Shown one piece after another: positions 23,018 to 48,374 of a stretch of DNA of 64,000 nt (position 1 is its first letter; each line of letters begins with the position of its first letter). The notes beneath the pieces were generated by a model. That model had not been told where the DNA came from, searched no databases, and saw nothing but the letters and a program-made list of their open reading frames with translations. Made by a program: the position numbers and the translations under genes. Origin of the DNA: a virus; the IMG/VR virus record IMGVR_UViG_3300028027_000001; one strand, given 5' to 3'.

Positions 23018-24760
23018 TTATTGAGGGAATTCTGCTCCTGTTGGTAATACTACGAAGTCTAGTGAAATAAATTCTGCTGTTTTTGTTGGTTGGATGTAAA
23101 TTTGACCTACTAATTGGTTTCTGTCGATAACATCTGGTCCATTATTAGTATCATCCATCACAATTCTAAATGCATATAAACCTTGTTTTTGTTGGATGTT
23201 TTCTAGGTATGGATTAACTTTAGCTAAGAATGAAAATCTAGTTACAGCTGTGTTTTGTTCAAATACGATGTTGTCTGCTAATTGACCAATATATCCTTTT
23301 AATTCAATCAATAAACGTCTAACATTTACTCTGTCTAGAGCAGAAGCACCTTTTTGGAGTGTTTTCTGACCGTATACAGCCACACCCACTTTAGGCATTG
23401 TTGCTAACGGGTTGATGTTGTTTGTATATAGATCGTCTTTATTTGATTGTGTTAATTTATATTGAGCACGTGCTACATTGTTTAATCCACCTCTGTTAAT
23501 ACCAGCTGGTGCGAACCAAGGAGCAGCAATTTTATCGTTGTTTGCGTATACACCTGGGATTAATGTAGATGCAGGTACCCAAACATATTTTCCAGTTGCT
23601 GGGTCAATTATGTTACACCATGGCCAGTAAGCGGCAGCATATGAAGTGTCTCTTGACTGTGCTTGAGAAATTGCGTCTGTTACGGTTGAATTATAATCAG
23701 TTAAATCTACTACATATAAATTATCTCCACGGTTTTGGGTGTTGGTGATAATTGTAGATATTGTTGATGTATGTAAATCGTTAGTTAATCCTGGTGTAGT
23801 TAATATGTTAAATCTATATTCGTCTTTGTTTGCTAATAGGTTAATCATGTTAACATAATTATCAGCAACTAAACCTTGTGTATTTGATGAATTGAGGGCC
23901 TCGTAGAAATTAGCACCTCCTTTAATTGTACCAGTAGCACCACCAAATAAACATTGTTGAGCAACGGGAATTTTATCAGCATATCCGGCTTTTGGTAAAC
24001 CGTTTGCGTCTAAATAATCAGGTGTTGTAACGTTAACTGCTGATACTCTAACATATTTTGATGCGTTAGGGAAAGAACCACTGAATTCCATTTGTTGTGT
24101 TGATGGGTTGTAATTCAATTTAGTATCTCCAATTACACGTGCAATATAGTTTGGTGATTTTGGATCTAAGTTTACACCGTTAAATGATTCAAGTACTATT
24201 TTCTTGTTTGTCGTGTCGTTACCTTGACGAATAACTACGTTAAATGTACCTGATGATGTGTTTGGTGAAGTGATTTCAAATCTAATGTTGTCTGCAGTAC
24301 CTGATGTTAAACTACCGTTAGTACCTGTTGTTGTATTGTTTTGATCAACACCTTCACTAAGTGTTTCAAGTTCAAATATATTTACACCACCTCCAGTAAC
24401 GTATGATGAGCTAACATAACCATCAAACACGTATGATGAATCGTCGGCAACAACCGATGAAGTTGCTGGGGAGTAAGAACCAGATACTACTCTTGCAACT
24501 AATAATGAATTTCCACCGTAGTTGAAATAATTGTATGCTGCAATTGATGTCAAATAAGAATAAACATCACTTCCACTTGTGATGATGTCACCGAATATGT
24601 TTTTATATTCTGAATAAGATGTAACTACCGTTGGAACTTCAACTGGGCCTTTTACTGTTGGGCCTATAATAGCTGCACCAACTTGGATAGGTTGACCCGA
24701 TAGATATGATTTATCTACCTCGTTTAATGTTACTCCTGGAGATATTGAAAAGTTTCCCAT
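23018..24760 (-). CDS. Tail sheath protein (copy 2)
   Basis: SPGV, AIIGPTVKGPV, PWFAPAGINRG, GQKTLQ, LDRVNVRRLL, VFEQN, PTKTAEFI. Confidence 0.95.
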   Translation of the reverse strand: MGNFSISPGVTLNEVDKSYLSGQPIQVGAAIIGPTVKGPVEVPTVVTSYSEYKNIFGDIITSGSDVYSYLTSIAAYNYFNYGGNSLLVARVVSGSYSPATSSVVADDSSYVFDGYVSSSYVTGGGVNIFELETLSEGVDQNNTTTGTNGSLTSGTADNIRFEITSPNTSSGTFNVVIRQGNDTTNKKIVLESFNGVNLDPKSPNYIARVIGDTKLNYNPSTQQMEFSGSFPNASKYVRVSAVNVTTPDYLDANGLPKAGYADKIPVAQQCLFGGATGTIKGGANFYEALNSSNTQGLVADNYVNMINLLANKDEYRFNILTTPGLTNDLHTSTISTIITNTQNRGDNLYVVDLTDYNSTVTDAISQAQSRDTSYAAAYWPWCNIIDPATGKYVWVPASTLIPGVYANNDKIAAPWFAPAGINRGGLNNVARAQYKLTQSNKDDLYTNNINPLATMPKVGVAVYGQKTLQKGASALDRVNVRRLLIELKGYIGQLADNIVFEQNTAVTRFSFLAKVNPYLENIQQKQGLYAFRIVMDDTNNGPDVIDRNQLVGQIYIQPTKTAEFISLDFVVLPTGAEFPQ

Positions 24761-24813
24761 TTTTGATTTTTATTATAAATATAGTGATTACTGATTAAAT
24801 TCGATATGGTATA

Positions 24814-26514
24814 TTAAAGTATAGCTCCTGTAGGTAATACATTAAATTCAAGTATAATGAATTCTGCTGTTTTTGTTGGTTTTAAATATATTTGACCCAC
24901 CAATTGATTATTGTCTATTACTGTTGGTGTATTGTTTGTTTCGTCCATTACTACTTTATACTCATATAAACCTTGTTGTTGTTGCACAGTAGCTAGGTAT
25001 GGGTTAACTTGTGCCAAAAATCTATTACGTGTATTAGATGTATTTTGTTCAAACACTAAAGTGTTTGCAATTTGGCCAATATAATTATTTAATTCAACTA
25101 ACAATCTTCTAACGTTTACACGATCCAAAGCATTTGCTTTTTTCTGTAGTGTTTTTTGACCAAATACAACTACACCAGTTCCTGGTATTGTTGATATTGG
25201 GTTAATGTTTGCTTCATATAGTGAATCTCTATTGCCTTGGGTTAATACACGTTCAACACGTGTTACGTTTGACATTACACCGCGATTAATGCCGGCTGGT
25301 GCTATCCAAGGATAAGATATGTTGTCGTTAAATGCATATACCCCAGGAATCAATGTGGAAGCAGGTACCCAAACGTTTTGTCCTGTTGATGGGTCGACGG
25401 TTTGAGCCCAAGGCCAATATGAAGCTACAAATGATGTATCAAATGAAGATGCTTTATTTACAGTAGTTGCTATGTTTTGATTGAATTGTACTAAATCTAC
25501 TATAGCCATCGTATCGCCACGCTCTGTTACCATTGGTATCAATTTAGTATTGATTACATTAAAATGGTCTACAAATGAATTATTGCCTATAAGTCCAGGT
25601 ACTGTGATAAAATTGTATTTGTATGAATCTTTATTAGCTAATAATGCTATTGATTCAACATATGAAGATGCTGGGATACCTTGTGAATCTGAATTGGTAA
25701 TTGCTTCGTAGTAGTTTGCAGCATATCCTGTTGGGATATTTTTTCCAGTTGCTCCTCCAAATGCACCACTAGTAGCTGTTGGAATCGAACTAGTATATTG
25801 TGGTTTTGCAATATCGTTATTGTCTAAATAATTTGGTGTTGGAGTGTTTACTTGTTTTACACGAACATACTTTGAGTTGTTTGGATAACTACCAGTTAAC
25901 TCAAGGTAGTATTCACCATTATCAGAACGTAAATTTTCAGTTGTATTACCAATTATTTTTTCAATATAGTTTGGTGAAAATGGATCCAGGGATAAATTAG
26001 AAAATGTTTCAAGTACAGATGGGGAATTTGTTGTATCATTACCTTGTCTAATTAATAATGAAAATGTTCCAGATGATGTATTAGGTGATGTGATTTGGTA
26101 TCTGAAATTATCAGCAGATCCACTATCTAAAGCACCATTTACTTCATTGCTAACACTATTCATGATTTCACCTTCTGATAATGTTTCTAATACGAATGAG
26201 GATTGAATAGATGCTGTAGCAGGGGTGAATGAACCGCTTACAACGCGAGTTACCAAAAGTGAAGTACCTCCGTTGTTGAAATAATTATACGCGGATATTG
26301 ACGTTAAGTATGAGTATGTTTGAGATCCACTTACTAAAACATCACCAAATTTGTTTTGATATTCACTATATGTAGTAACTATGGTTGGGATGTTGACAGG
26401 ACCTTTTACGGTTGGGCCTATAATGGCTGCTCCAGCTTGTGCAGGTTGTTGTTGTACTGCTGATTGATCGTTTACATTAATAACTACACCTGGTGATACA
26501 ATGGATGTTGACAT
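24814..26514 (-). CDS. Tail sheath protein (copy 1)
   Basis: Same sheath motifs as 23018..24760. Confidence 0.95.
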   Translation of the reverse strand: MSTSIVSPGVVINVNDQSAVQQQPAQAGAAIIGPTVKGPVNIPTIVTTYSEYQNKFGDVLVSGSQTYSYLTSISAYNYFNNGGTSLLVTRVVSGSFTPATASIQSSFVLETLSEGEIMNSVSNEVNGALDSGSADNFRYQITSPNTSSGTFSLLIRQGNDTTNSPSVLETFSNLSLDPFSPNYIEKIIGNTTENLRSDNGEYYLELTGSYPNNSKYVRVKQVNTPTPNYLDNNDIAKPQYTSSIPTATSGAFGGATGKNIPTGYAANYYEAITNSDSQGIPASSYVESIALLANKDSYKYNFITVPGLIGNNSFVDHFNVINTKLIPMVTERGDTMAIVDLVQFNQNIATTVNKASSFDTSFVASYWPWAQTVDPSTGQNVWVPASTLIPGVYAFNDNISYPWIAPAGINRGVMSNVTRVERVLTQGNRDSLYEANINPISTIPGTGVVVFGQKTLQKKANALDRVNVRRLLVELNNYIGQIANTLVFEQNTSNTRNRFLAQVNPYLATVQQQQGLYEYKVVMDETNNTPTVIDNNQLVGQIYLKPTKTAEFIILEFNVLPTGAIL

Positions 26515-26566
26515 ATTTTGGTTTGGGGTTTTATTTAATTATAAATATGATGCAGGTCAATAGAAA

Positions 26567-26830: not shown

Positions 26831-26861
26831 GTTTATATTTTATATATAAATATAGGGTGGA

Positions 26862-28559
26862 TTATGCAAGAGACGAAGAACGCCAAGTCCCCCCAATATA
26901 AACGTAAATATAGTAATTACCTCCGTTAGATACTGGTACTATTTCTCCTTCTGTTCCTGTGTATGATGGGGCAGATGATTGGGTTGCTACTACTATAGTA
27001 TCTCTGCCAGTTACTTTAAAGGCATCTTTACGTGATGAATCACTGGATCCACCACCAACTATAAATGAGGAAACTACATCGTCGTGTGTGTTATAAGCAC
27101 CAACTACGGTTTGAAATGAACCTGAAGCTATGGTGCCAAGGCCCCCGGCATGTGAATAATCACCTAGAGCTACTGTGTCTTGACCTTCAGCATGTGAATT
27201 ACTCCCACTAGCTATGGTTCTAAAACCTTCAGCATGTGAAGCATATCCATGTGATATTGATGCTTGCCCTTCAGCGTGTGAATATGCTCCATTAGATGTA
27301 GTTCCTGCCCCTTCAGCATGTGATGATTGACCAACGGCGGATGTGGCGTTACCTTCAGCATGGGAACCAAATCCTGTGGTAGATGTTTGTTGACCTTCAG
27401 CATGTGAATAATCACCATTAGCAACACTTAAATACCCTTCAGCATGGGAACCGGTACCAGATGTTACTGTAAAATACCCCTCAACATGTGAACCAACCCC
27501 ATCAGCAGTTGTTCGGATACCTTCGGCATGAGAACCACTACCGTTTGCTGTACCTCCGGAGTTTGATGTAGAATCATATCCTCCTTCGGCATGAGAAAAG
27601 GGACCGTTAGCTCTAGACCCAACCCCCTCAGCATGTGACCCATTACCAGAAGATACAGTAAGTGCCCCCTCAGCATGTGAACCTATACCGGTTGATTTTC
27701 CACCTATTAACATCCCATCTATCCCTCCTTCAGCATGTGAATAATTACCGATAGTGGTAGATAGATACCCTTCAGCATGTGAAAATGAACCAGTGGTAGA
27801 GGTAACATACCCTTCAGCATGAGACCATGAACCACTAGCTCTTGTTTGGTTACCTTCAGCATGAGATCCATTACCAATGGCTCTGGTTAGTTGTCCTTCG
27901 GCATGTGAGTGTGACCCACTAGATATTGTTTGGTAACCTTCAGCATGAGAATAATTACCGCTAGCAGTGGTGGATTGACCTTCAGAATGGGATGCTATGC
28001 CGGATGCAAGTGTAGATATACCTTCTGAATGGGCTGCCGGACTTGTGGCTCTGGTGCTTCCACCCTCGGCATGTGCACTTTGGGCGGATGCCGTTGTTAA
28101 TTGACCTTCAGCATGTGAACCATATCCAGTGGCTAATGTTCTTTCACCTTCAGCGTGGGAATACAACCCAGTTGGGAGACTTCCGGTTCCTTGAGAAAAT
28201 GCTCCGAAAAATTCTACTGTACTTCCATTTGGTATTGTTAGTACACGTGGGGTAGACATAGGTACAGATAGATTTGAATTGCCTATATTAGTATCAACAC
28301 CCCCAAATGCACTGGATGCTGTGTAGAATAGTTGCCCTGTTGTTGTGTTGATTGTTACTATATTAGTTTGTGATACTTCGGTTAATGTTTTAACGAATGT
28401 ACTACCTGATAGTATTGTAGAGCCAGTAACTTGGAAGGAACCTGATATGTTAATATCGTATGCGCTTAATCCTGTAAGTGCATCTACGGATTGCGATACG
28501 TGATAAGGTCTTACTATATTAAGTGAAACTATATCAGTTTTGTCGAGACGTTTTGCCAT
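26862..28559 (-). CDS. Tail fibre/adhesin with YadA-head-like SHAEG repeats
   Basis: More than 20 copies of a ~14-aa T.A.G..SHAEG repeat. Confidence 0.82.
   Translation of the reverse strand: MAKRLDKTDIVSLNIVRPYHVSQSVDALTGLSAYDINISGSFQVTGSTILSGSTFVKTLTEVSQTNIVTINTTTGQLFYTASSAFGGVDTNIGNSNLSVPMSTPRVLTIPNGSTVEFFGAFSQGTGSLPTGLYSHAEGERTLATGYGSHAEGQLTTASAQSAHAEGGSTRATSPAAHSEGISTLASGIASHSEGQSTTASGNYSHAEGYQTISSGSHSHAEGQLTRAIGNGSHAEGNQTRASGSWSHAEGYVTSTTGSFSHAEGYLSTTIGNYSHAEGGIDGMLIGGKSTGIGSHAEGALTVSSGNGSHAEGVGSRANGPFSHAEGGYDSTSNSGGTANGSGSHAEGIRTTADGVGSHVEGYFTVTSGTGSHAEGYLSVANGDYSHAEGQQTSTTGFGSHAEGNATSAVGQSSHAEGAGTTSNGAYSHAEGQASISHGYASHAEGFRTIASGSNSHAEGQDTVALGDYSHAGGLGTIASGSFQTVVGAYNTHDDVVSSFIVGGGSSDSSRKDAFKVTGRDTIVVATQSSAPSYTGTEGEIVPVSNGGNYYIYVYIGGTWRSSSLA
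27140..28170 (-). repeat. Degenerate ~42-bp coding tandem repeat (SHAEG)
   Basis: Recurring plus-strand ccttcagcatgtga; boundaries approximate. Confidence 0.85.
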
Positions 28560-28561
28560 AT

Positions 28562-28765: not shown

Positions 28766-28776
28766 GTGTTTAAATT

Positions 28777-31700
28777 TTAATAATTAGGGAAAAAACGTTC
28801 AACTAATACACTTATATTCCCTCCATAGGTTGTATTGCTTCGATATGCTGTGATTTTGTAGAATGGATAATTTGGGTCTAATCCCGCATGTACAGTTATT
28901 TCTAATCTACTGTCAGAACTTATACCGTTTGGGTATATGTCTGTGGTAACACTGGCTACTATAAGATCTGAGGTTGCTGTTACTGTGGTTGCTGTGGTTG
29001 AAAATGCATGTACTTGCACCCTACCAGAAACTGGGTCAGTATTGATGTCCATTTCAAAATCATTTCCTGAAGAATCATATCCTAAATTAATATAATCATC
29101 TTGATACACCGGGCGAGTGGTGGTTAGATAACTAAATTGTTTATATTTGGTTAAGGGGACATTATATGATATAGATGAAGACCCTGATGGTAAATTTATG
29201 GATATAGAGGATGTTGTTTGGGAAAGTGATGAGGTTATAAATAATGAACCAGATATCAATGCAGAACCCGTATAAGGGAATGTTGGGGATGATGGGGCCC
29301 AAGATGAAGATAATGCTTGAGATGAGTATGATGCTGTGCCCAATAATGAGCCAGTAATTCCACCTTGTACAGATAAACTACCTGTTATTGTAGTAGTTAA
29401 TGATGAATTAACTTGAATGATTGGTGTTGAACCGGTCCATACTGTAAATAGGGGACCTGATATTACATCGGTTACATCAAATAATGGGCCGTTTGATCCA
29501 CTAACAGCAAATGCTGTTGAGCCAGATTGATATATGGACACACTACCTGTTGCATTTATTGAACCTGATATATATACTGCTTGGTTTAATTGGTTAATGT
29601 ATGATGATGTGGATGCAAATGATGCTGATACAGCGTTTAATACATACGATGCCGTTTGTGATAAGGCAACATACGAAGCTGTTTGTGCTAGGGTAATGAA
29701 TGATGCAGTTACTGCATTTGTTGCCCACGATGATGTACCAAATAATGAACTAGTGACGCCATTTTGTACGTTTAAACTACCAGTAATTGTAGTAACCAAT
29801 GACGAATCAACCACTAATATGTTCGTGGATCCAGTTGATACCGTTAATAATGGGCCTGAATTATTATCTGTTATTGATAATAAGGGTCCAACTGATCCAC
29901 TTATTGTTACTACTGTGGATCCTGATTTGTATACAGATACACTTCCGGTTGTGTTTAATGAGCCGGATATGTTTACTGTTTGGTTTAGTTGGTTAACATA
30001 TGATGCCGTAGATGAAAATGATGCACTAACGGCATTTGTGACATAGCTTGCGGTTTGTGCTAGGGTAACAAATGATGCCGTATTTGAATTTTGGGCCCAT
30101 GATGAAGTACCGAATAGTGAACCAGTAATACCGTTTTGCACTGTTAAACTACCGGTGATTGTTGCTGAACCACTTAATGTCATTATACGATTTGATGATA
30201 CATCAAATATTGGTGATGATCCAGTATATATGGTCCATAGCGAACCAGATACAGCATCTGTAACTTCAAATAATGTGCCTTGTGATCCACTAATTATAAG
30301 TGGGGATGAACCTGACTTGTATATGTTTACACTACCGGTTGCGTTAAGCGAACCGGAAATGTTTACTGCTTGATTTAATTGGTTAACGTATGATGCAGTT
30401 GATGAATATGAAGCGGATACTGCGCTTAGCACGTAGCTAGATGTCTGAGCCGTTGCAACATAGCTAGCGGTTTGTGCTAGTGTAACGAATGATGCTGTAG
30501 CTGCTTGTATTGAGTATGATGATGTACCATTTAATGAACCTGTGAATGATGTTGCATTTAATGAACCCGTTAAACCATATGAACCTGTTAATTGTTTTGA
30601 ATTAACCCATACACTACCAGATTTAATTAACATATCGCCATACGATGTGGTAGTTGTTGTGTCTGTTATGTCGTGCAATTCGCCAATTTCGTATCCGTTG
30701 TCGATACGAATATGTATGGAACCATTGTTTGATTGTTGGCGGATAACTTGACCTAAACGTACTGTATGTAGTGGTGCTTGTGGTGCAGAACCGGTGATTG
30801 AACCACCAGCACCTAAAAATACCAATTGACCTGAAATATAGTTGGTTGTGTCAATTCCTGTTAATACACCTTCAGTAATAACAAATCCTTGTGACCCATT
30901 TGTAATTTGTTGTGTAGCTATACCTAACGTATTTGCTGATACATGGTCTGTTTCATAAGACGCAGTGGTAATACGTGGTATATCGCTAGAATTGTTTGAG
31001 CCAGTAATACGTACAACCATTCCTTTTTCAATTGTGAAACCAGTTTGGTTAATAGCGAGTATATCGGTTTGAGTTGTGCGTTCTGAAAGTGATGATGTAG
31101 AAGCATATGATGCAGATAATGCATTAAGTGCATAACTAGCCGTTATAGCATACGATGATGATAATGCTTGTGTAGCATATGATGCAGTACCAGTAAATGA
31201 ATCTGCTGTTATACTACCACTAATATATAAACTACCAGTAAATTGGTGTGTATCGTCTGATGTATCTCCGAATTTGGTTGAACCAGATGCATAAATAATT
31301 GACGATGAATTGTATATAGTGTGGAATACGTTAAATGATGCCGTACCGTTTACCACTAAATCACCATTGATTGTAGCACTACCCGTTACACCTAACGATC
31401 CAGTAATTTGAGCGGACCCTGTAAATGGGAATGGTGAAATGTATCCTTCTAGGTACGATGCAGTTAATGCATACGATGAAGTTGTGGAATTGTTTGAATA
31501 GGATGAGGTTTCAACATATGAAGCTGTTTGGGATAGTGTAACATATGATGCTGTTTGTGCGTTTTCTATATATGAAGCCGTTTGAGCATTTTCTACGTAG
31601 CTAGCTGTTTGAGCATTTTCGACATATGATGCAGTGTCTGCTAAATCGGCATGTGAAGCGCTTACAGCGTATGATGCGGATATGGCGTCTTGTGCAAATG

Positions 31701-32403
31701 ATGATGTAGTTGAGTAACTCGCAGATATAGCGCTATCAGCAATGGATGAACTTACAGCATACGATGCGCTTAATACATAACTAGCGGTTTGAGCCGTTTC
31801 AACATACGATGCAGTTTGTGCATTTTCTACATAGCTTGCTGTTTGAGCGTTTTCAACGTATGATGCTGTGAATGAATACGAAGCAGATATTGATTGGTTA
31901 ACATATGAAGCCGTTTGTGCATTTTCTACATATGAAGCCGTTTGTGCTAGTGCAACATACGATGCAGTTTGTGCATTTTCAATATATGAAGCTGTAACCG
32001 CATTAAATGCCCAAGATGCCGTAGCAACATATGAAGCAGTTTGTGCATTTTCTACATATGAAGCCGTTGAGGAATATGATGCGCTTATAGCGTTTGAAGA
32101 TGTTGCAGGAGCAATAGCATTGGATGCAGTATAGTAGAATTGACCGTTAATTGGATTATATGTTACTACATCTGATTGTGCGGTATTGGTTAAATTAGGT
32201 ACAACTACATTACCATATATGGTAGTAGGCCCATCTACGTTCAATTCACCTTCTATTGATGTGGAACCAGTTACAGTGAATGAACCTGATATGGTTATAT
32301 CGTAGTTATCGGCGCCGGTAAAGGCATCTACGGATTGGGATACGTGTTGAGGGTAAATTGTTTGGTTTAGAACTATGCCGTTGTTCGATAGGTTTTTTGC
32401 CAT
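28777..32403 (-). CDS. Long Ser/Thr-rich tail fibre protein
   Basis: TASYVENAQ nonapeptide repeats and three ~130-aa ...NQLNQ.V.ISGS repeats; N-terminus shared with 26862..28559. Confidence 0.8.
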   Translation of the reverse strand: MAKNLSNNGIVLNQTIYPQHVSQSVDAFTGADNYDITISGSFTVTGSTSIEGELNVDGPTTIYGNVVVPNLTNTAQSDVVTYNPINGQFYYTASNAIAPATSSNAISASYSSTASYVENAQTASYVATASWAFNAVTASYIENAQTASYVALAQTASYVENAQTASYVNQSISASYSFTASYVENAQTASYVENAQTASYVETAQTASYVLSASYAVSSSIADSAISASYSTTSSFAQDAISASYAVSASHADLADTASYVENAQTASYVENAQTASYIENAQTASYVTLSQTASYVETSSYSNNSTTSSYALTASYLEGYISPFPFTGSAQITGSLGVTGSATINGDLVVNGTASFNVFHTIYNSSSIIYASGSTKFGDTSDDTHQFTGSLYISGSITADSFTGTASYATQALSSSYAITASYALNALSASYASTSSLSERTTQTDILAINQTGFTIEKGMVVRITGSNNSSDIPRITTASYETDHVSANTLGIATQQITNGSQGFVITEGVLTGIDTTNYISGQLVFLGAGGSITGSAPQAPLHTVRLGQVIRQQSNNGSIHIRIDNGYEIGELHDITDTTTTTSYGDMLIKSGSVWVNSKQLTGSYGLTGSLNATSFTGSLNGTSSYSIQAATASFVTLAQTASYVATAQTSSYVLSAVSASYSSTASYVNQLNQAVNISGSLNATGSVNIYKSGSSPLIISGSQGTLFEVTDAVSGSLWTIYTGSSPIFDVSSNRIMTLSGSATITGSLTVQNGITGSLFGTSSWAQNSNTASFVTLAQTASYVTNAVSASFSSTASYVNQLNQTVNISGSLNTTGSVSVYKSGSTVVTISGSVGPLLSITDNNSGPLLTVSTGSTNILVVDSSLVTTITGSLNVQNGVTSSLFGTSSWATNAVTASFITLAQTASYVALSQTASYVLNAVSASFASTSSYINQLNQAVYISGSINATGSVSIYQSGSTAFAVSGSNGPLFDVTDVISGPLFTVWTGSTPIIQVNSSLTTTITGSLSVQGGITGSLLGTASYSSQALSSSWAPSSPTFPYTGSALISGSLFITSSLSQTTSSISINLPSGSSSISYNVPLTKYKQFSYLTTTRPVYQDDYINLGYDSSGNDFEMDINTDPVSGRVQVHAFSTTATTVTATSDLIVASVTTDIYPNGISSDSRLEITVHAGLDPNYPFYKITAYRSNTTYGGNISVLVERFFPNY
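31500..32100 (-). repeat. Degenerate 27-bp coding repeat (TASYVENAQ)
   Basis: Recurring gtttgtgcattttctacatatgaagc variants; boundaries approximate. Confidence 0.8.
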
Positions 32404-38000: not shown

Positions 38001-38100
38001 CAACGTCGCTTTTTACAAGACCTTGAGGTGTTGTCAACGTGGCATTAGTTAAGATCAAATCGGACTGTTTGTCCAATACAATTTTAGTAATTTTACTCAT
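35098..38100 (-). CDS. Long Ala-rich coiled-coil fibre protein
   Basis: Many E.AARIADVDAEETRALAAEA.LSASL repeats; C-terminal GSEQVYLNG beta domain. Confidence 0.8.
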   Translation of the reverse strand: MSKITKIVLDKQSDLILTNATLTTPQGLVKSDVAGLVTDLANLVTADEDEAAARIAGDLALSASLATEVAARIADVDAEEAARISGDTQLSASLDAEVAARIADVDAEETRALAAEAALSASIATETNARIADVNAEETRALAAEAVLSASLATEVAARIADVDAEETRALAAEAVLSASVATEIAARELAVSNEATARIAGDTALSASLAAEITARLAADAAEVADRIAGDEMLQDNIDAEATARANADITLQANIDTEVSRSQAAEAVIAANLATEIADRISDVNAEETRALAAEAVLSGSIVAEQTRALAAEGVLQGNINTEKGRIDAILSASTADANTFAEIVALINSVDTTNDTAFASYVLSNDAALAAETAARTALDTAISASLDAEIVRAMAAEAAISASLVNEIERATSFDVSISASLDTEISNRISGDATLQSNLNTEITRSLNAEQVLQANIDTETSRSQAADNVFTADLATEIAARIAGDSAEETRALAAEAALSASLVAEISARIADVDAEETRALAAEAALSASLVAEVAARIADVDAEETARIAAVTAEETARIAGDAALSASLSTETTTRLANSASLALNLANEITTRTANSASLAAGLAAEITARTTADTNNSASAATALTAESASRVAADLALSASLSQSIAALPLVDGVTIEVTGSTVRLMDTVASGSAGVRTFNGLINVGAQPSTFGGYGDLTLITRKLAFDNDTAISASLAAGLATEITTRTANSASLAAAIVTEANARTAADTALSASAAAAIATEKGRIDAILSASTADKDTFAEIVALINSVDTTNDTAFAGYVLSNDAALAAEETRALAAEATLSASIAALNFSSSADVTLLSASFESALAAEIAAREAADATLTQNVADILANTDITAIDSFKEVINNINTVNAANFDAVYAKKNTVTAAPNGTTTAFTFTNAVKVGSEQVYLNGQLLDTDGDYTTTVAGGVVTGVTFTAAPATEDKLMFYGVYGTLTNISNAGL

Positions 38101-38475: not shown

Positions 38476-39264
38476 TTACACATCATAATAATATGTGCAA
38501 CGAAGCCTTGTATCAATATCGGGGGGGTATACAAACACAATTGTATTTCCTGTTAAGGTATAGTCGTTCCCGCTACCCTCTTGCAATAAACCATTTAAGT
38601 AAATATGTTCACTACCTAATACAGGATCATGGGCTAGATGGAATGTAGTGTTTTCACCGTTTATGAGACCATATGGGGCTTCTTTATCTGCAAACAGACG
38701 TACTATTGTTTCGGTAGCATAGTAATATGTACAGTGGAGTTTTGCTCCTTCCCACAGCGGCTCACTAAATGTGATTGTAGAACCAGATATGATATAGTCT
38801 GTTTGGGAACCTTCCTCAATTAATAAACCATTTAAATATAAATGCTCACTTCCGTTTACAGGAATGTTGCGCAAAATAAACGTTGAATTTGTTCCATCGA
38901 TAGAACCGATGGGAATTTCTTTGTTTACGTGTATGTTGGTTGATTTTGTGTTGGATAACGCTAAATCTTCAATAGTGGATAACATTACTGACTGACTAGC
39001 CATGGTTAATGTAAATGAATCGATGGATTGGGATAACGTGGTAGTTACTTGTGATAATGATTGAGATACATTGGTGTTGGTTGTACCTATTGATTGGGAA
39101 AGATTTGTATAATTGTTGGTTACGGTATTACCCAATACTGTTGTTGTATTATTGATAGTAGATACGGCATCATTAACGATGATATCAGCATATTTAATTG
39201 AAACGGAACCATTTCTAAATTGGTTCATTTTACGTAACGGGGTCGAGCTTGGTCTTTCAGCCAT
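38476..39264 (-). CDS. Virion structural protein with two P.G.I.G.N..F.L...P..GSEH.YLNGLL repeats
   Basis: Internal duplication visible in the translation; follows the neck genes. Confidence 0.72.
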   Translation of the reverse strand: MAERPSSTPLRKMNQFRNGSVSIKYADIIVNDAVSTINNTTTVLGNTVTNNYTNLSQSIGTTNTNVSQSLSQVTTTLSQSIDSFTLTMASQSVMLSTIEDLALSNTKSTNIHVNKEIPIGSIDGTNSTFILRNIPVNGSEHLYLNGLLIEEGSQTDYIISGSTITFSEPLWEGAKLHCTYYYATETIVRLFADKEAPYGLINGENTTFHLAHDPVLGSEHIYLNGLLQEGSGNDYTLTGNTIVFVYPPDIDTRLRCTYYYDV

Positions 39265-39786: not shown

Positions 39787-40938
39787 TTACCCGATAAATA
39801 TATTCATTGGTACCTGTGCTATTGTGTCGTTTTGGAATTTTGCTTCGTTTGCTTTTTTCTCCATTAAGTTAGTACGTGATGTTGAATCTAAATAGGCACG
39901 TAAACGTTCAATCAATGCATTTTTCTCTGCAGTAGCCGCGTTAATCAAATCACTTTGATTTAATGTCACTTCAGCTCCTGGTATTGGTGTGGTTGAATAT
40001 TTTCCTCTAACGTATCCTAGTATTTCTTTAACTATTGCTAATGCATATTCGAATATCCATTGTCTACCAATTGAGTTAATTTGGGAGTAATTTGGATTAT
40101 TATATGGTACATTAGATACGTTAGTAATTATGCTAGTACCATTCCTATCAACATATGGTTGATTGCGATCATTAGTTAATATATAGTGGAAGAATAATGA
40201 ATGGAACCCTGTTGTTGTAGGTATAGGAAATACCCTTAATTTATTGTTTACTAATTCAAATGTATATTGGGACTTACGAATTTGATCATTTAGTTCAATT
40301 GCTTGAATTTTTTGCATATCATAATTCATAGGCATCAATAGAAAGTTGATAGCAGGTGAATATCCACCCCAACCAAAACTATCCATCATTTGCATCATAC
40401 CAGTACCCGTACCGGCGTAAGGATCAAAATAACGAGTAATTGCTGGGGATGCTTCATAAAACACACGTTTGATTTCAATAGGGCTGGTTATACCCTTTTG
40501 TTTTGCCCACTCATTTAAATCATACGTCTGCTGACTTGCATTAAGTGCAATCGAACCCGTATGATATTCAACAGTTCCACCAACACCTGCTTCTGTTCCA
40601 TACTGGTTTGAAAGGCGAACCATAGAAGCCAAATTATCCTGTACCAATTCATTATTTCCTGGGTTTATAGTTGTGGGCGCTCCTTGGAATGATAATAGAT
40701 TTTCAGCAACTTGGTAGGCATATAACTCGTTTCCGTATGTGGTAATGGCTTCTTCAAAAGCCGCGTAAAAGTTCAAATCTTGCAATTCTACTTCCATAAT
40801 CGGATAACCTAATCTACGTGAAGCAAATGTAGTAAATTTGTCCGAATCGGTTTGGAATTGGAAATCCGCATCGTAGAAACCAAATGGTGTTTTGCCAGGT
40901 GAGAAGGAGGAACTTCCTCCGTAAATTGGGATATTCAT
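39787..40938 (-). CDS. Neck protein (T4 gp13-like)
   Basis: RRLGYPIMEVELQD, WIFEYALAIVKEILG.VRGKY, IPG.EVTLN, C-terminal P..IFIG. Confidence 0.85.
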   Translation of the reverse strand: MNIPIYGGSSSFSPGKTPFGFYDADFQFQTDSDKFTTFASRRLGYPIMEVELQDLNFYAAFEEAITTYGNELYAYQVAENLLSFQGAPTTINPGNNELVQDNLASMVRLSNQYGTEAGVGGTVEYHTGSIALNASQQTYDLNEWAKQKGITSPIEIKRVFYEASPAITRYFDPYAGTGTGMMQMMDSFGWGGYSPAINFLLMPMNYDMQKIQAIELNDQIRKSQYTFELVNNKLRVFPIPTTTGFHSLFFHYILTNDRNQPYVDRNGTSIITNVSNVPYNNPNYSQINSIGRQWIFEYALAIVKEILGYVRGKYSTTPIPGAEVTLNQSDLINAATAEKNALIERLRAYLDSTSRTNLMEKKANEAKFQNDTIAQVPMNIFIG

Positions 40939-40942
40939 GGCG

Positions 40943-41389
40943 TTATGCGTTAATTAGTGTATATTCTATATCTGCATTACCTGTCATAGCATATGCTGAA
41001 ACGGATTGAATTGTATCACCGAATGAGCTTGAGAACATACTTGAGGTAATGTTTGGTGAAACAATAAATATGGATGATACAGGTAGCAATTCTTGTGTGT
41101 ATCCACCCTTCGATCCACTAACGGTAATAGCGATAGATGTTGCGTCGTCTAAATTAGATATACGCGCGTATTTTAAACTACTAGATGGGAATACACCCGC
41201 TCCCGGATTCACACCATTTAAATTGAATAAATCAACCGAAGTGGTAGCGGGGCAAGTAAGTATCCTGTGGTCAACGTTGCTTACGTTTGGAATAATGTAA
41301 GTGAGTTCGTTTTTGTTTACGCTGTTTCTTACTATTTGCTCCTCGATGATGTGTATCTTGAATGTAGTAGGTGTTAAGGTAGATGCCAT
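40943..41389 (-). CDS. Hypothetical virion protein
   Basis: KYARISNLDD; late motif at 41403. Confidence 0.65.
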   Translation of the reverse strand: MASTLTPTTFKIHIIEEQIVRNSVNKNELTYIIPNVSNVDHRILTCPATTSVDLFNLNGVNPGAGVFPSSSLKYARISNLDDATSIAITVSGSKGGYTQELLPVSSIFIVSPNITSSMFSSSFGDTIQSVSAYAMTGNADIEYTLINA

Positions 41390-41441: not shown

Positions 41442-41444
41442 ATT

Positions 41445-42761
41445 TTATTGGTAATATTCGATTATGAAACGGAATTTGAAATCTGGTATTGTACCGTAGT
41501 CAAATTCCCCTCCAAATGGTCTGATATAGAATGATATATTTGATCCATATGCTAATTCAACTGGGTCATTTTCAAGTATATCTATTGTATCGCCGTTTGA
41601 GTTTACATAGCTAGTATCAAATGGGATTGGGTATGCTGGGTCTAGTGTTTTTTTACCTACAAGTGTACCATAACCTGATATGGCTGCATCTACGCTCATT
41701 CCAGGTCCAGCTGAAATTTCACCCCACAATGTACCTGGGTCGCCTATGTTTGTTGATGTATATGCTGTACTACCAGTTGATGGTGTTCCTGTAATTACAT
41801 TAGATGGGCTCAATTCATACATCGTATCACTACTCATATGGTTAAAACCTAAATATACTAATGGATCAGCAGGTGCGTAGTATTGAGCTGTACCTAATCC
41901 GTTTAATCGGATATATGTTTGGGTTCCGTTGTATGAATTGATGATGTTAGTATACACCTTAATTTTGCTGATGCCTTTCCACGATATGTCTGGGCAATAT
42001 CCTATATTAGCATATATACCAGATGTTTCGTATACTAATGGAGGGAAATTTTTGAAGTCTTCTCGGAAATCACCAGTAGGTAATCCTGAAACTATACCTA
42101 CATGAGTCCCATCCCACCCAATAACATATGGGTTAAATCCATCTTTGGATAACGCATCAATAGATATGGTTATATCTCCACTGTCATATTGTGCGGTAGC
42201 AGGAGCGGAAAATGTCCATTCACCTGGTAATGGGTTCTCAATGCAAATAAACTCATATGGCATTCCATCTGGTGGTAATATAGCAGGTGTATCTACCGGG
42301 TAATTGTTGATTTTACCACCAACATTGGATGGATAAACTGACAAAAATGAATTACTATTGTTTACAACGCGTACACTTTTACCAGTTGTTGGTTGTGGTA
42401 GTTTAGTTGCTCTGTTTGTTGTTGTTACATATTCAAACACGTTTACACCATACGAACATATGGATGTAGTTGCGGATGAAGTTGTACTTGCACTCAACGC
42501 AGCATTGACTGTATACAACGTGTCTGAAATGTTTAGTGACGCTGTTTGTGTTGTAGTTACAAATGATGCAGTGTCTGCACTAGTGATAAATGAACCTGTG
42601 TCTGTGCTAGATACGAATGAAGATGTATCCGCGCTGGTTAGGAATGAACCCGTTACCGCAATTAATGCGTTAACGGACCCAGTAAGGTATTCGAAATTAC
42701 CATCCAACTCATCGTGAGTTAATGGGGCTCCTTTGGTTGAGCGTAATGTTAAATTAGCCAT
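41445..42761 (-). CDS. Fibre/decoration protein, paralog B
   Basis: MANLTLRSTKGAPLTHDELDGNF N-terminus; paralog of 42765..44063. Confidence 0.72.
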   Translation of the reverse strand: MANLTLRSTKGAPLTHDELDGNFEYLTGSVNALIAVTGSFLTSADTSSFVSSTDTGSFITSADTASFVTTTQTASLNISDTLYTVNAALSASTTSSATTSICSYGVNVFEYVTTTNRATKLPQPTTGKSVRVVNNSNSFLSVYPSNVGGKINNYPVDTPAILPPDGMPYEFICIENPLPGEWTFSAPATAQYDSGDITISIDALSKDGFNPYVIGWDGTHVGIVSGLPTGDFREDFKNFPPLVYETSGIYANIGYCPDISWKGISKIKVYTNIINSYNGTQTYIRLNGLGTAQYYAPADPLVYLGFNHMSSDTMYELSPSNVITGTPSTGSTAYTSTNIGDPGTLWGEISAGPGMSVDAAISGYGTLVGKKTLDPAYPIPFDTSYVNSNGDTIDILENDPVELAYGSNISFYIRPFGGEFDYGTIPDFKFRFIIEYYQ

Positions 42762-42764
42762 AGT

Positions 42765-44063
42765 TTATTGGTAATATTCAATTATGAATCTGAATTTGAA
42801 GTCTGGGATGGTGTCGTAGTCAACATATTCTAGAGGGCATATCTGAAATGATATGTAAGATGAGTAGAATTTTTCTACTGTTGTGCCAACATATACAGGG
42901 TTAGAAAATGGGTAAAGTAAAGTACCCAATGATTTATTACCTATAAGAGTACCTTGCTCAGTATCTAAATTGACATTAGCTTCAACGTCTGAAAATGCTA
43001 CTTGCTCTCCCCACATTGTACCAGCATCACCTATATTTGCTGATGTATATGCTGTACTACCTGTTGATGGGGTTCCAGATATTGTATTGTTTAAATAGAG
43101 TCTAAATAAATTAATATTAAGTGCACTAGCACCATTAGTTATTATTGAACCGTCGGATATTTTGTAGTAATCTGCTTCCCCATTCCCTAACAATCTAACT
43201 TCAGTATATCCTACAGGGTCACCACCTTCATCCACTGTTGCTAATATATTTGTGTATACTTTGATTTTGCTAATACCTTTCCATGCGGTATCTGGTCTGA
43301 ATGCTAGGTAATAGTATCCGCCAGATGTTCTTTGTTGGATAGTACCTTTGTTTTTCCCATTGTACCCCCAAGTCTCACTATTAAAGCTATTTGCTAATCC
43401 AACATGAGATGCATCATATGCAGTAACAACGGGGTTGTATCCCTCTAATGTACCTGCAGTAACAGATATTTCTATTTCTCCACTATCGTATTGTCCAGTA
43501 GCGGGAGTTGAGAATGTCCATGCTCCTGGTAATGGGTTCTTGATACATATGAATTCATATGGCTTACCATCTGGAGGTAATATTGCTGGAGTATCTACCG
43601 GGTAGTTGTTAATGTTACCGCCAATATTAGATGGGTAAACATATAACAATGATGTGCTATTGTTGATTACAGTAACGCTTTTACCTGTGGTTGGTTGTGG
43701 TAATTTAGTAGCGAAATTAGTTGGAGTTACGTATTCAAATACGTTTACACCATATGAGCACACTGACGTAGTTGCTGATGATGTTATACTCGCGCTCAAC
43801 GCAGAATTAACTGTGTATAACGCGTTAGATATGTTTAACGATGCCGTTTGTGATGTGGTGACAAATGAACCTGTATCCGCGCTAGTAATAAATGATGCAG
43901 TGTCTGCACTGGTTAGGAATGATGATGTATCGGCACTAGTGATAAATGAACCGGTTGCAGCATTGATTGTATTAATTGAGCCCGTAAAGTACTCAAAGTT
44001 GCCGTCTAGTTCCTCGTGGGTTAATGGGGCTCCTTTTACAGAGCGAAGGGTTAGGTTTGCCAT
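42765..44063 (-). CDS. Fibre/decoration protein, paralog A
   Basis: MANLTLRSVKGAPLTHEELDGNF N-terminus; late motif at 44079. Confidence 0.72.
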   Translation of the reverse strand: MANLTLRSVKGAPLTHEELDGNFEYFTGSINTINAATGSFITSADTSSFLTSADTASFITSADTGSFVTTSQTASLNISNALYTVNSALSASITSSATTSVCSYGVNVFEYVTPTNFATKLPQPTTGKSVTVINNSTSLLYVYPSNIGGNINNYPVDTPAILPPDGKPYEFICIKNPLPGAWTFSTPATGQYDSGEIEISVTAGTLEGYNPVVTAYDASHVGLANSFNSETWGYNGKNKGTIQQRTSGGYYYLAFRPDTAWKGISKIKVYTNILATVDEGGDPVGYTEVRLLGNGEADYYKISDGSIITNGASALNINLFRLYLNNTISGTPSTGSTAYTSANIGDAGTMWGEQVAFSDVEANVNLDTEQGTLIGNKSLGTLLYPFSNPVYVGTTVEKFYSSYISFQICPLEYVDYDTIPDFKFRFIIEYYQ

Positions 44064-44098
44064 ATTTTAATGTTTACGTATAAATATGGACGAACATG

Positions 44099-44794: not shown

Positions 44795-44808
44795 ATAACT
44801 TGTTTTGG

Positions 44809-44841
44809 TATAAATATACTAAATGGTTGGTGGGTAGCCAA
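44809..44841 (-). promoter_or_regulatory. Composite host-type + late promoter upstream of phoH
   Basis: TTG-N18-AGTATATTTA overlapping ATATTTATA. Confidence 0.65.
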
Positions 44842-44843
44842 AT

Positions 44844-46547: not shown

Positions 46548-46650
46548 GTAAATATACCTTATGTTCCGGTATAAATATACTAAAGGAACATAGGGGGGGC
46601 AAATATAAAGGGAAAATCAGTGATTATATGTGTGGATGAAGAGTAACGGG

Positions 46651-46685
46651 AAAAAAGAAGGGCGCCGAAACCGGCGCCCTTTTTA
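46651..46685 (-). terminator. Intrinsic terminator after the major capsid gene
   Basis: AAGGGCGCCG-GTTT-CGGCGCCCTT followed by CTTTTTT. Confidence 0.88.
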
Positions 46686-46712
46686 GCGTGAAATCTGCGA
46701 TTTTACGCGCGA

Positions 46713-48374
46713 TTAGATGCTTGCTAAGTCAGAAACAAACACTCTTCCGTAGAATTCCGGACGGATCATTTTCTTCGCGTAACGAGTCAATAGACCTTTT
46801 CTTGGTGTAAATGTTTCAGGATCGTATACAAGTGGCGTCATGATTAATGGAACGTAAGGCGCAAATACAGCTCCTGTTTCTAAGAATTGAGCACCTCTAT
46901 AACCCATCAAGATAACGTTTTCAGTCATGTATGGGTTTTTGTATACTGTGTAACGGTTGTTCAAGTTACCTGCTTTTTGGATACCAAAAGCGTAGCTTGC
47001 TTTAGTTACATCACCATCAGAAGATGAAGCAAATCCTGGGATTGACTCAAGGATTGTTGCTACAGCTGGAGAACATACCATGAAGTTAGCGCCACCTCTT
47101 AAAGTCTTTTGGTGAATTTTGTTAGATACTTTTTGGAATTTCGTTCCTAAAGTTTGGAACCATTGTCCTTGTGTGTTGTAGAAACCTAAGTTATCGTATC
47201 CAGTTTTAGCTGAATTTAATGACTTGTTGTTTACTGCTGACCAATACTCATCTGCTGCAGAAGCGTCTTGAATCAACATATCTAAGTTTTCTAAATCGAT
47301 TTCTAATGCGATGTACTCAGACATGATTGATGTTAATTCTGCTTCAGCATCTAATGATTGGTAAGCATTTAAATCTTGTGCGAACTCTGGAGTCCATTGT
47401 GCTTTCAACTTACGTGTTTTAGCAACGATAGCTTCTGATTTCAATTTGATATCGATAGATGGGATAGCTAATGTATCAGCAGCTTGTGCGTTTGCATATC
47501 CTCCACCAGCTTGGTCTTCGAAATCACCTCTGTTGTTATCAACTGGTTGTTGGTTGTACCATACAACGTTTCCAGCACCTGCAGCAGGAACGTCAGCTGA
47601 AGCTACAGCACCTACATAGATGAATGAAATGTTTGTTCCGTCTGTTTTAGTGAATTGAGGTAATACTTTAGCGTTTGTGTTTGGAGTCAATGTTGATCCA
47701 GAAGCTAATGTAAATGCTCTAACACCTTTCAAATCAGGACGTGTTAATGCAGAAGCAGCAACAGATACTTTTGTATAAGCACCAGCAGCAATAGATGCAG
47801 ATAATTCAGCAGCATAGTTAACGTCTGCCCAAGATGCAGTAGCAACTGTAGTTGCAGCAGAAGCTGAGAATTGATTAATTGTGTATCCGAAACGACCAGC
47901 ACCATATAAACCACCATTTGGATCGTTTGCAGCACCTGGGTTAGTAACACCGTATAATGAACCTGTTCCGTAGATATCACCTGCTGGTCCGAAGTTCAAT
48001 TTTTTGTTTTGTCCGAATGCGAAATCCAAGAAGAAAACTAGACCTGAAGGTAAGTTCATTGGTTGAACTGACATGAATTCTTTAGTTGATAAAGAACCGA
48101 ATACTTTACGTACTAATGGTAAAGCTACTCCTGCCCATTGCTCACCTTGTCCTACTGAAAATGTAGCACCACCTTGGTTTGTTGAGTTAGATTCCATAAC
48201 CAATTGTTTAGCTTGGTTTTCAAGAATCATTGCCATGTTGTTTTTTTCAATTTCTGAGTTAACACCCTCTAAAAGGCCTGTTTTACCCCATTTTGCAGCC
48301 ATTCTTGCTGCATCACTTTGCAAGTTTTTCCAACCTGCAGCTGAACTTTCTAATAAGTCGTTAATTGTTGACAT
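46713..48374 (-). CDS. Major capsid protein (T4 gp23-like)
   Basis: PLVRKVF, SVQPMNLPSGLVFFLD, AKTRKLKAQWTPEFAQDL.AY, FAPYVPL, FTPRKGLLTRY. Confidence 0.97.
   Translation of the reverse strand: MSTINDLLESSAAGWKNLQSDAARMAAKWGKTGLLEGVNSEIEKNNMAMILENQAKQLVMESNSTNQGGATFSVGQGEQWAGVALPLVRKVFGSLSTKEFMSVQPMNLPSGLVFFLDFAFGQNKKLNFGPAGDIYGTGSLYGVTNPGAANDPNGGLYGAGRFGYTINQFSASAATTVATASWADVNYAAELSASIAAGAYTKVSVAASALTRPDLKGVRAFTLASGSTLTPNTNAKVLPQFTKTDGTNISFIYVGAVASADVPAAGAGNVVWYNQQPVDNNRGDFEDQAGGGYANAQAADTLAIPSIDIKLKSEAIVAKTRKLKAQWTPEFAQDLNAYQSLDAEAELTSIMSEYIALEIDLENLDMLIQDASAADEYWSAVNNKSLNSAKTGYDNLGFYNTQGQWFQTLGTKFQKVSNKIHQKTLRGGANFMVCSPAVATILESIPGFASSSDGDVTKASYAFGIQKAGNLNNRYTVYKNPYMTENVILMGYRGAQFLETGAVFAPYVPLIMTPLVYDPETFTPRKGLLTRYAKKMIRPEFYGRVFVSDLASI

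Follow-up and report, generated by a model that had tools for sequence, protein, structure and literature searches.

The tripeptide [ST]-[GASQ]-S occurs in the outer virion proteins of this phage above the level that their composition predicts, and the excess is real, protein-level and lineage-specific. We propose that it is probably, in the main, the footprint of several short structural fibre repeats, with conserved positions in the capsid and sheath proteins adding the rest. The window (the whole stretch of 64,000 nucleotides that was analysed) carries the structural genes of a distantly T4-like myovirus; among cultured phages, Flavobacterium phage immuto is the closest to it. The lineage, with immuto, Mel-JY01 and many uncultured relatives, is described as aquatic.

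Table 1. Features of the window, with motif counts as observed vs expected (h, hydrophobic).
Feature	Coordinates	Strand	Support	Motif
Tail sheath, paralog 1	23018..24760	-	PHROG 23, E = 2.9e-67	7 vs 2.2
Tail sheath, paralog 2	24814..26514	-	PHROG 23, E = 7.3e-69	7 vs 2.8
565-aa fibre, S-G-S-x-S-H-A-E-G-type repeats (YadA-head-like)	26862..28559	-		17 vs 11.1
1208-aa fibre	28777..32403	-		100 vs 27.8
Ala-rich fibre, predicted helical, 1000 aa, L-S-A-S-L every 29, 18 or 11 residues	35098..38100	-		29 vs 6.6
262-aa protein, N-terminal h-S-Q-S-h every 11-12 residues (nt 38980-39117)	38476..39264	-	weak PHROG matches	5 vs 1.4
Neck protein (head-tail adaptor, T4 gp13-like)	39787..40938	-	PHROG 211, E = 9.8e-13	2 vs 0.9
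Small Ser-rich protein, 148 aa, upstream of neck genes	40943..41389	-		4 vs 1.3
Fibre-like protein paralog B, 438 aa	41445..42761	-	288 metagenomic homologs	9 vs about 2.9
Paralog B nonapeptide repeat stalk, residues ~27-100	42462..42683	-	motif repeats	
Fibre-like protein paralog A, 432 aa, N-terminal 9-residue repeats then beta-sandwich head	42765..44063	-	62% identical to paralog B	9 vs about 2.9
Paralog A nonapeptide repeat stalk, residues ~27-100, unit T-[GAS]-S-F-[ILV]-T-S-A-D	43764..43985	-	motif spacing 9, four times	
Major capsid protein (T4 gp23-like), 553 aa, 6 motif sites	46713..48374	-	PHROG 138, E = 1.9e-64	6 vs 2.0
Lineage-specific extra capsid domain, residues ~137-290, 5/6 motif sites	47505..47966	-	alignment	

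Extent and specificity of the tripeptide excess

The motif was counted per protein against whole-protein shuffles and shuffles within 20- and 10-residue blocks, and it rises above the composition expectation under all three controls (Table 1). The excess is restricted to virion proteins exposed on the outside (capsid, sheath, neck and fibres); the tube, hub, tail lysin, portal and enzymes lack it, and the remaining window proteins hold, pooled, 21 versus 28.2. The initial annotation had proposed a sequon for decoration of the virion, rare in replication enzymes, terminase and portal. Its quoted tripeptides are all present (VVSGS in both sheaths; GTGS, FSAS, ATAS, LSAS and ASGS in the capsid protein; LSQS, VSQS and ASQS in the 262-aa protein; LSASL in the helical fibre), the rarity elsewhere is borne out, and the excess exceeds Ser/Thr composition and stays confined to exposed virion proteins, so the sequon idea survives the shuffles. 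The further claim that the motif saturates unrelated proteins holds for the excess itself, which beats the shuffles, and overstates its breadth: 166 of the 202 sites (82%) lie within repeat-bearing fibre segments, and the carriers include two paralog pairs.

This share of repeats and these paralog pairs, together with a motif class that was set after the sequence had been read, speak for an artefact in which a post hoc motif is counted in paralogs and repeats as though they were independent. We regard such an artefact as hardly probable at all, and it is largely refuted by three observations. First, with repeats and paralogs taken out, the count is still 28 versus 15.3 (p = 0.0014, the motif having been picked post hoc), and the non-repeat, non-fibre proteins keep a 1.8-fold excess. 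Second, when all residue pairs at i, i+2 were scanned without bias in the non-repeat outer proteins, S-x-S ranked second (z = 3.2). Third, capsid representatives at most 50% identical to one another hold 374 versus 192.5. Moreover, the counterparts of the outer proteins in T4 and cyanophage S-CAM4, which share their folds, show no excess.

The codons of the motif are varied, and this diversity points to selection at the protein level. The excess is asymmetric, with S-small-S at 2.6-4.2x and T-small-S at 1.5-3.1x the expectation, x-small-T at 0.3-1.75x and S-large-S at 0.65-0.8x. Ser and Thr together make up 17-31% of most outer proteins versus about 8-18% of enzymes and internal proteins, and orthologs of the portal, terminase and protease are depleted in S-small-S (0.11-0.64x); both would fit a lineage in which exposed surfaces are covered by small hydroxylated residues on physical grounds (such as low charge, low stickiness or hydration), the tripeptide itself having no specific role. 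We consider this quite improbable, as the excess survives the 10- and 20-residue block shuffles, and neither the strong preference for S-small-S over S-small-T nor the positional conservation would be expected from it.

Hydrophobic flanks lift the enrichment to about 10-fold in the sheaths and the capsid protein, and this would place the motif inside ordered elements. It is predicted to lie in helix, strand and turn, with hydrophobic residues on either side, in agreement with the helical and beta contexts first described. In the capsid, sheath and small Ser-rich families the excess comes down to a few conserved columns, the rest being close to expectation; in the neck family an about 2-fold excess persists outside such columns. 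Four repeat types and four protein families, none related to one another, converge on the one tripeptide.

Fibre repeats and conserved capsid and sheath positions

What the data show directly is the statistics and the repeat units, together with how far these units are conserved and how their copy number varies. The repeat region of the 1208-aa fibre (nt ~29179-32130) consists of 9-residue T-A-S-Y-V-x-N-A-Q and 6-residue [ST]-G-S-h-x-h units, its motif sites being spaced by 9 residues 34 times and by 6 residues 30 times. The repeat is common to more than 1250 metagenomic proteins, has no real match in Pfam and matches no PDB chain. Seven of the nine positions of T-A-S-Y-V-x-N-A-Q are conserved (2915 units, 119 proteins); anchoring the units on Y-V-x-N-A alone gives, for the three residues before it, T/S in 96%, A/S in 98% and S in 97%, with Thr at the third in less than 1%. 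Several repeat-bearing homologs (P0299, P0301, P0316) end in a Peptidase_S74 chaperone domain; Pfam finds this domain in none of the window's own fibres, the 1208-aa fibre included. We suggest that the 9- and 6-residue repeats adopt a trimeric beta-helical fold.

Nonapeptides recur in the fibre-like paralogs, where 8 of the 9 sites of paralog A fall within residues 27-96. Paralog B belongs to no family in Pfam or PHROG. Its AlphaFold2 monomer model is a confident beta-sandwich in the C-terminal part (~190-438), with no significant fold match in the PDB, and leaves residues 1-130, the stalk, unmodelled (pLDDT <50). In homologs of paralog B, the number of repeat units runs from 2 to 9 and the C-terminal beta-sandwich (~330 aa) is conserved; some homologs also carry PF05658. 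Across 120 of them, the N-terminal part holds 480 versus 194 motifs and the C-terminal 330 aa 204 versus 167.

Two further proteins show longer periods. The Ala-rich fibre is probably helical, judging from its 25% Ala and its repeat pattern. Its motif sites lie 29 residues apart in six cases, 18 in four and 11 in two, hydrophobic residues stand at -1, +3, +7, +11 and +14 relative to the tripeptide, and both these periodicities and the resulting 4-4-4-3 core spacing fit a non-heptad (hendecad/pentadecad) coiled coil. The 262-aa protein has four SQS sites spaced by 11, 11 and 12 residues, and its weak PHROG matches are to tail fibre and virion structural proteins. In the 565-aa fibre, PHROG 25468 matches in 6 stretches; membership in the YadA-head beta-roll (PF05658) was rejected, as YadA_head scores 20.4 bits, under the 25-bit gathering cut-off.

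Away from the fibres, the sites gather in lineage-specific outer parts. The capsid protein is 60% identical to that of immuto, and its extra domain is a gap in T4 gp23 and in the S-CAM4 capsid protein and is present in immuto, Mel-JY01 and Rhodothermus phage RM378. In 75 diverse capsid representatives, 258 of the 316 motif instances lie at window residues 150-300, with conserved motif columns at 170, 192, 225 and 254; the capsid model is good only for residues ~168-280 (pLDDT ~70-88). In sheath paralog 1, 6 of 7 sites fall within residues 62-229, outside the conserved sheath core that aligns to residues ~337-578, and in paralog 2 all 7 fall within residues 62-243; the two sheaths have four motif sites in common. 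Orthologs of the neck protein (45) hold 158 versus 47.1 motifs, and those of the small Ser-rich protein 59 versus 17.0, mainly at 4 conserved columns.

We therefore favour, as the probable explanation, a structural origin, the fibre tripeptide being an invariable element within a longer conserved unit that differs by repeat type. There are four such units: T-A-S-Y-V-x-N-A-Q with period 9, [ST]-G-S-h-x-h with period 6, L-S-A-S-L in the predicted coiled coil with periods 11, 18 and 29, and YadA-head-like 14-mers of the type S-x-S-H-A-E-G. The remainder would come from a few conserved hydrophobic-S-[A/G]-S-hydrophobic positions in the lineage-specific outer domains of capsid and sheath. The small side chains and hydroxyls may be kept for tight packing and for hydrogen-bonded Ser/Thr stacks. 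In beta-type shafts, the motif would lie at the turns of a trimeric shaft, next to a stack of aromatic residues (Tyr/Phe) and a ladder of Asn; its place in the coiled coil would be the two positions flanking the hydrophobic core. The tripeptide would then not be a recognition signal. This structural origin is supported by the concentration of sites in fibre repeats, by the conservation of the 9-residue unit, by the copy-number variation of the stalks, set against the little excess in the heads of the paralog B family, and by Peptidase_S74, an intramolecular chaperone domain known from trimeric fibres, in homologs. The core spacing around the tripeptide in the helical fibre, the effect of hydrophobic flanks, the few conserved columns in the capsid, sheath and small Ser-rich families and the varied codons speak for it as well. 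Several points count against it: the residual excess, including that of the neck outside conserved columns; the asymmetry between S-small-S and S-small-T, which simple amphipathic strands do not predict; the convergence of families and repeat types; and the restriction to exposed virion proteins together with its absence from the T4 and S-CAM4 homologs. None of these repeats has a solved structure in the PDB.

Possible virion glycosylation as an alternative

Instead, hydrophobic-[S/T]-[A/G/S]-S-hydrophobic may be the acceptor for cytoplasmic O-glycosylation of capsid, sheath, neck and fibres by a phage glycan island, the proposed enzymes being a GT4 pair, GT2 enzymes and the products of amino-sugar synthesis genes. 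We hold this to be unlikely, although the lineage-specific excess on exposed proteins would suit it. A glycan-synthesis island with GT2 and GT4 genes is present in 3 of 3 relatives with complete genomes, namely immuto and two from IMG/VR, the GT4-like genes of relatives forming an adjacent pair of ~480 and 436 aa, and the immuto island further encodes two WecE-type aminotransferases, a NeuD/PglB/VioB-type acetyltransferase, an epimerase and a methyltransferase. In the cultured-phage comparison set of 50,697 records, the 480-aa GT4 occurs only in lineages that share the capsid type (immuto, Mel-JY01, LR756508, RM378), and Mel-JY01, which has this GT4, shows a motif excess in its sheath (11 versus 3.6) and neck protein (5 versus 1.1). 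In the DNA of immuto, dA, dC and dT are canonical, fdPreQ1 takes the place of all dG, and glycosylated nucleosides are absent (10.1101/2023.04.13.536721); thus, the target of the island there is apparently not DNA. A precedent is virion O-glycosylation by phage enzymes, demonstrated in mycobacteriophages according to the account of Freeman 2023 in PMC11652166.

However, nothing ties the island enzymes to the tripeptide. As the initial annotation had it, the window holds no visible modifying enzyme: Pfam and PHROGs detect no glycosyltransferase in the ORFs scanned. A relative lacking glycosyltransferases was looked for and none was found, so the co-occurrence of enzymes and motif is fully confounded with phylogeny. 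RM378 has a GT4 homolog and no motif excess, and the immuto capsid holds only 3 versus 2.0. Conservation of seven of nine repeat positions goes far beyond the needs of an acceptor site; the sites, located in outer domains, yet have hydrophobic flanks, and these, with the predicted helix, strand and turn contexts, would be difficult to reconcile with a single enzyme that modifies folded proteins; and the excess in capsid, sheath and small Ser-rich families sits at conserved columns, not at sites that turn over. The phage GT4s are also not of the GtfA/GtfB type: the immuto pair matches only the generic Glycos_transf_1 and no GtfA/GtfB model in NCBIfam or Pfam, and such a system was rejected. We consider even less likely that the whole aquatic lineage (immuto, Mel-JY01 and uncultured relatives) glycosylates its own virions on the motif Ser through the lineage-specific GT4 pair and amino-sugar island; equally doubtful is the corresponding coverage, in which sugars would lie on the capsid extra domain, outer sheath domains, neck and fibre repeat stalks.

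If the structural origin is correct, T-A-S-Y-V-x-N-A-Q and its 6-residue companion would be a very widespread and so far undescribed phage fibre repeat, and a model for it, given the number of metagenomic carriers outside any Pfam model or solved structure, would better annotate receptor-binding proteins in aquatic viromes. If glycosylation is correct, virion protein glycosylation would extend beyond mycobacteriophages, the one case cited above, to a large environmental lineage with a readable acceptor motif; this would matter for recognition between phage and host, for the stability of the particle and for its recognition by grazers or immune systems.

Comparison with known systems

Gram-positive serine-rich-repeat adhesins are glycosylated in the cytoplasm by GtfA/GtfB. 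They likewise have many S-A-S type repeats, and the relatives here have an adjacent GT4-like pair; cytoplasmic modification would be required here too, because virions assemble in the cytoplasm. The adhesins, however, have long S-x dipeptide tracts where the phage proteins have 9- and 6-residue units with conserved aromatic and aliphatic positions, and the phage GT4s match neither GtfA nor GtfB models. Bacteroidota general O-glycosylation also uses a Ser/Thr acceptor, in the same likely host phylum, and acts on exported proteins outside the cytoplasm, the compartment of virion assembly; its sequon D-(S/T)-(A/I/L/V/M/T) is not enriched in twelve outer proteins (33 versus 26.8 +/- 4.8). The mycobacteriophage system, as described in PMC11652166, shares phage-encoded glycosyltransferases (here in relatives) and a proposed target at the virion surface; modification is demonstrated in mycobacteriophages and a candidate here, host phylum and phage type differ, and the candidate sites here are internal to folded domains and repeats.

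Like trimeric autotransporter adhesins with their YadA-head beta-roll, the 565-aa fibre has 14-residue S/A/G-rich repeats, its YadA_head match being weak, and the helical fibre has the 11/18/29-residue periodicity of their non-heptad coiled-coil stalks; the proteins here are phage fibres, not autotransporters. Compared with trimeric phage fibre shafts (triple beta-helix; T4 gp5 C-terminal octapeptides, pre-Peptidase_S74 stalks), the unit sequence found here has no counterpart among Pfam models or solved chains, and the S74 chaperone domain is present in several homologs, unlike in the window's 1208-aa fibre. Such shafts likewise have a fixed short unit, here of 9 and 6 residues, with fixed small, aromatic and Asn/Thr positions and a copy number that varies between homologs.

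Late genes and the distribution of the tripeptide

The tripeptide [ST]-[GASQ]-S was put forward in the initial annotation as a candidate modification sequon of the virion, and all the tripeptides quoted there are found in the window proteins. In each protein it named, the motif exceeds the expectation from Ser/Thr composition, both in whole-protein shuffles and in shuffles within 20- and 10-residue blocks; the remaining window proteins, pooled, hold 21 instances against 28.2 expected. We propose that the excess is probably due to structural repeats plus conserved structural positions. PHROG matches recognise a T4-type late module in the window, every gene of which lies on the minus strand, and several fibre-like genes occupy the interval between the neck and sheath genes.

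Coordinates and assignments of late-module and fibre genes in the window
Feature	Coordinates	Strand	Basis
993-aa tail protein with C-terminal metallo-endopeptidase domain (residues ~867-987)	11027-14008	-	PHROG 7767
Tail sheath paralogs, tandem	23018-24760 and 24814-26514	-	PHROG 23
1208-aa fibre	28777-32403	-	
243-aa protein with lectin domain	33657-34388	-	Laminin_G_3
Ala-rich 1000-aa fibre	35098-38100	-	
Neck protein	39787-40938	-	PHROG
Stalk-bearing paralogs 41445 and 42765	41445-42761 and 42765-44063	-	
Major capsid protein	46713-48374	-	PHROG
Prohead protease	49605-50240	-	PHROG
Portal	52990-54888	-	PHROG
Terminase	54911-56491	-	PHROG
Homing endonuclease, PhoH, tail tube, baseplate hub	window	-	PHROG

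The 993-aa protein is probably a cell-wall-digesting tail tip protein. The lectin domain of the 243-aa protein, within the fibre gene block, is concanavalin-A-like (E = 3.6e-23). Most myoviruses have one sheath gene; here two full-length paralogs stand in tandem (23018-26514), both matching PHROG 23 at about 1e-67, and two are also present in at least one related contig (L011). Relatives of the capsid protein are encoded on at least 600 IMG/VR stretches. The top viral-contig match (97%) is on a 10.5-kb contig. The nearest cultured relative is Flavobacterium phage immuto, which is grown on Flavobacterium sp. LMO8; more remote full-length relatives come from Microcystis phage Mel-JY01, an uncultured 484-kb phage and Rhodothermus phage RM378.

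Counts taken from 80 related loci extend the pattern to orthologs: the motif is in excess in those of the capsid (468 vs 221 expected), sheath (93 vs 40), neck (158 vs 47) and the 148-aa protein 40943 (59 vs 17), and is depleted in those of the portal (12 vs 43), terminase (18 vs 51) and protease (13 vs 30). In the latter three, [ST]-small-S stands at about 0.3-0.4 times the composition expectation, a mirror of the outer-protein excess. Capsid representatives at most 50% mutually identical still give 374 vs 192.5. The proposed split between virion and non-virion proteins holds for the outer virion proteins, which are enriched, but not for the internal parts: in the window, the tube, hub, 775-aa protein, 632-aa protein and tail lysin have no excess. 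Thus, the divide is between exposed and not exposed, rather than between virion and non-virion.

A surface composition effect could be read into this divide, yet we consider it quite improbable, as the excess survives the block shuffles, which also rule out local composition alone. T4 has no excess (gp23, 0 vs 1.0; gp18, 4 vs 2.1; fibres, about 1.3-1.5-fold), nor has the aquatic cyanophage S-CAM4, and these two phages rule out the gp23 and gp18 folds themselves as the source. The preference is specific: S-small-S is enriched 2.6-4.2-fold and T-small-S 1.5-3.1-fold, with x-small-T forms at only 0.3-1.75-fold and S-large-S at 0.65-0.8-fold. Amphipathic beta-strand alternation was therefore rejected as the sole cause, since the middle residue is small, not hydrophobic, and x-small-T is enriched far less or not at all. 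The motif is written in many codon combinations, and the same codon twice in S-x-S is not above expectation; this means that the constraint acts at the protein level, and a DNA-level cause, such as a nucleotide motif or slippage, is ruled out.

Repeat units of the fibres

The excess noticed initially is real, but it is driven by repeats: repeat-bearing fibre segments hold 166 of the 202 motif instances (82%). In the 1208-aa fibre, arrays of a 9-residue unit alternate with arrays of a 6-residue unit. Nonapeptide arrays occur in upwards of 1250 metagenomic proteins, 664-2114 aa in length, with the consensus T-A-S-Y-V-x-N-A-Q over 2915 units. With Y-V-x-N-A as the only anchor, the three residues before it are T/S (96%), A/S (98%) and S (97%), the last being almost never Thr. 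Several of these proteins end in Peptidase_S74, the domain that serves trimeric fibres as an intramolecular chaperone. For the nonapeptide repeat there is neither a matching Pfam model nor a matching solved structure, a literature search for it found nothing, and an Atlas search likewise returned nothing; the nonapeptide and its 6-residue companion constitute a very large fibre repeat family without description. On these repeats Pfam gives only mis-hits, to Plasmodium_HRP. A bactofilin-like beta-helix, the JGI name of a few homologs, was dropped because Pfam supports it only at E = 0.38, and the 'Chlorovirus glycoprotein repeat' (PF06598) of two homologs was set aside, since it lies in short segments separate from the nonapeptide arrays.

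The paralogs 41445 and 42765 carry the same 9-residue unit in an N-terminal stalk, as T-[GAS]-S-F-[ILV]-T-S-A-D. Their family has two to nine stalk units, followed by a conserved beta-sandwich head with little excess; a fold search with the predicted 41445 model gave no significant PDB match. Members occur in multiple copies, as many as three on a single 167.8-kb contig, and their conserved N-terminal start contains L-T-x-x-E-L-D-G-N-F; some members have YadA_head repeats in place of the nonapeptide stalk.

Other fibres place the motif in different repeats. In the 1000-aa fibre, L-S-A-S-L recurs at 29-, 18- or 11-residue intervals, and the hydrophobic residues at -1, +3, +7, +11 and +14 around the tripeptide suggest that both Ser may lie beside a coiled-coil core, with Ala facing outward. 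Protein 38476 has h-S-Q-S-h (h, hydrophobic) at 11-12-residue intervals, and a 565-aa fibre has YadA-head-type 14-mers whose Pfam score is under the cut-off.

Conserved positions in capsid and sheath

Once the repeats are set aside and each paralog pair is counted through a single member, the motif still stands at 28 vs 15.3 expected (p = 0.0014, the motif having been defined after inspection), and an unbiased scan of all i, i+2 residue pairs in the non-repeat outer proteins ranks S-x-S second. An artefact is accordingly very hard to credit as the source of the excess. In the capsid, five of the six sites fall at residues 137-290 (47505-47966). About 150 residues long, this additional domain is shared with immuto, Mel-JY01 and RM378 but lacking in T4 gp23 and the S-CAM4 capsid. 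This domain holds 82% of motif instances among 75 diverse capsids. About six recurrent columns explain the capsid excess, the strongest being L-S-A-S at residue 192 (94% of close and 49% of distant orthologs). The AlphaFold2 model of the capsid is weak overall (pLDDT 53) and confident only at residues ~168-280, where the conserved sites are predicted to occupy a strand, the end of one, a helix and a position following a strand. The sheath excess also consists of conserved columns, and 13 of 14 sites are at residues 62-243, which do not include the conserved core at the C-terminal end. Adding hydrophobic flanks to the motif raises enrichment to about 10-fold.

Possible glycosylation and the glycan island

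Could the motif be a glycosylation sequon on virion proteins? All three complete relatives encode glycosyltransferases of families GT2 and GT4, and among cultured phages a 480-aa GT4 occurs only in lineages with the window's capsid type; however, this association is confounded with phylogeny, RM378 has a GT4 enzyme without the motif excess, and the immuto capsid has the motif at only 3 vs 2.0. Because the placeable repeat-bearing contigs are all of one capsid clade and mostly fragments without the distant island, they give no usable correlation between motif and glycosyltransferase. Moreover, the motif is deeply embedded in conserved repeat units, which is more in keeping with a role in packing than with one as an acceptor. 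We therefore regard glycosylation as unlikely, and prefer repeats and conserved structural positions.

As the initial annotation stated, the window has no visible modifying enzyme; a glycosyltransferase was looked for with Pfam and PHROGs among its scanned ORFs and not found. The clade's glycan island (49-60 kb in immuto) has two large GT4 genes (about 480 and 440 aa), GT2 genes and amino-sugar synthesis genes, and no polyprenol-linked export genes are annotated in it. In immuto it also encodes two WecE-type aminotransferases, a NeuD/PglB/VioB-type acetyltransferase, an epimerase and a methyltransferase. No relationship between the GT4 pair and GtfA/GtfB was found.

The motif is indeed unlike the Bacteroidota sequon, which on a cross-check is not enriched. 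A published nucleoside analysis of immuto DNA gave canonical dA, dC and dT, with fdPreQ1 wholly in place of dG and no sugars on the DNA (10.1101/2023.04.13.536721); thus, DNA is apparently not the target of the island there, and glycosylation of the virion stays plausible. Mycobacteriophages provide a precedent for it, by the account of Freeman et al. 2023 given in PMC11652166.
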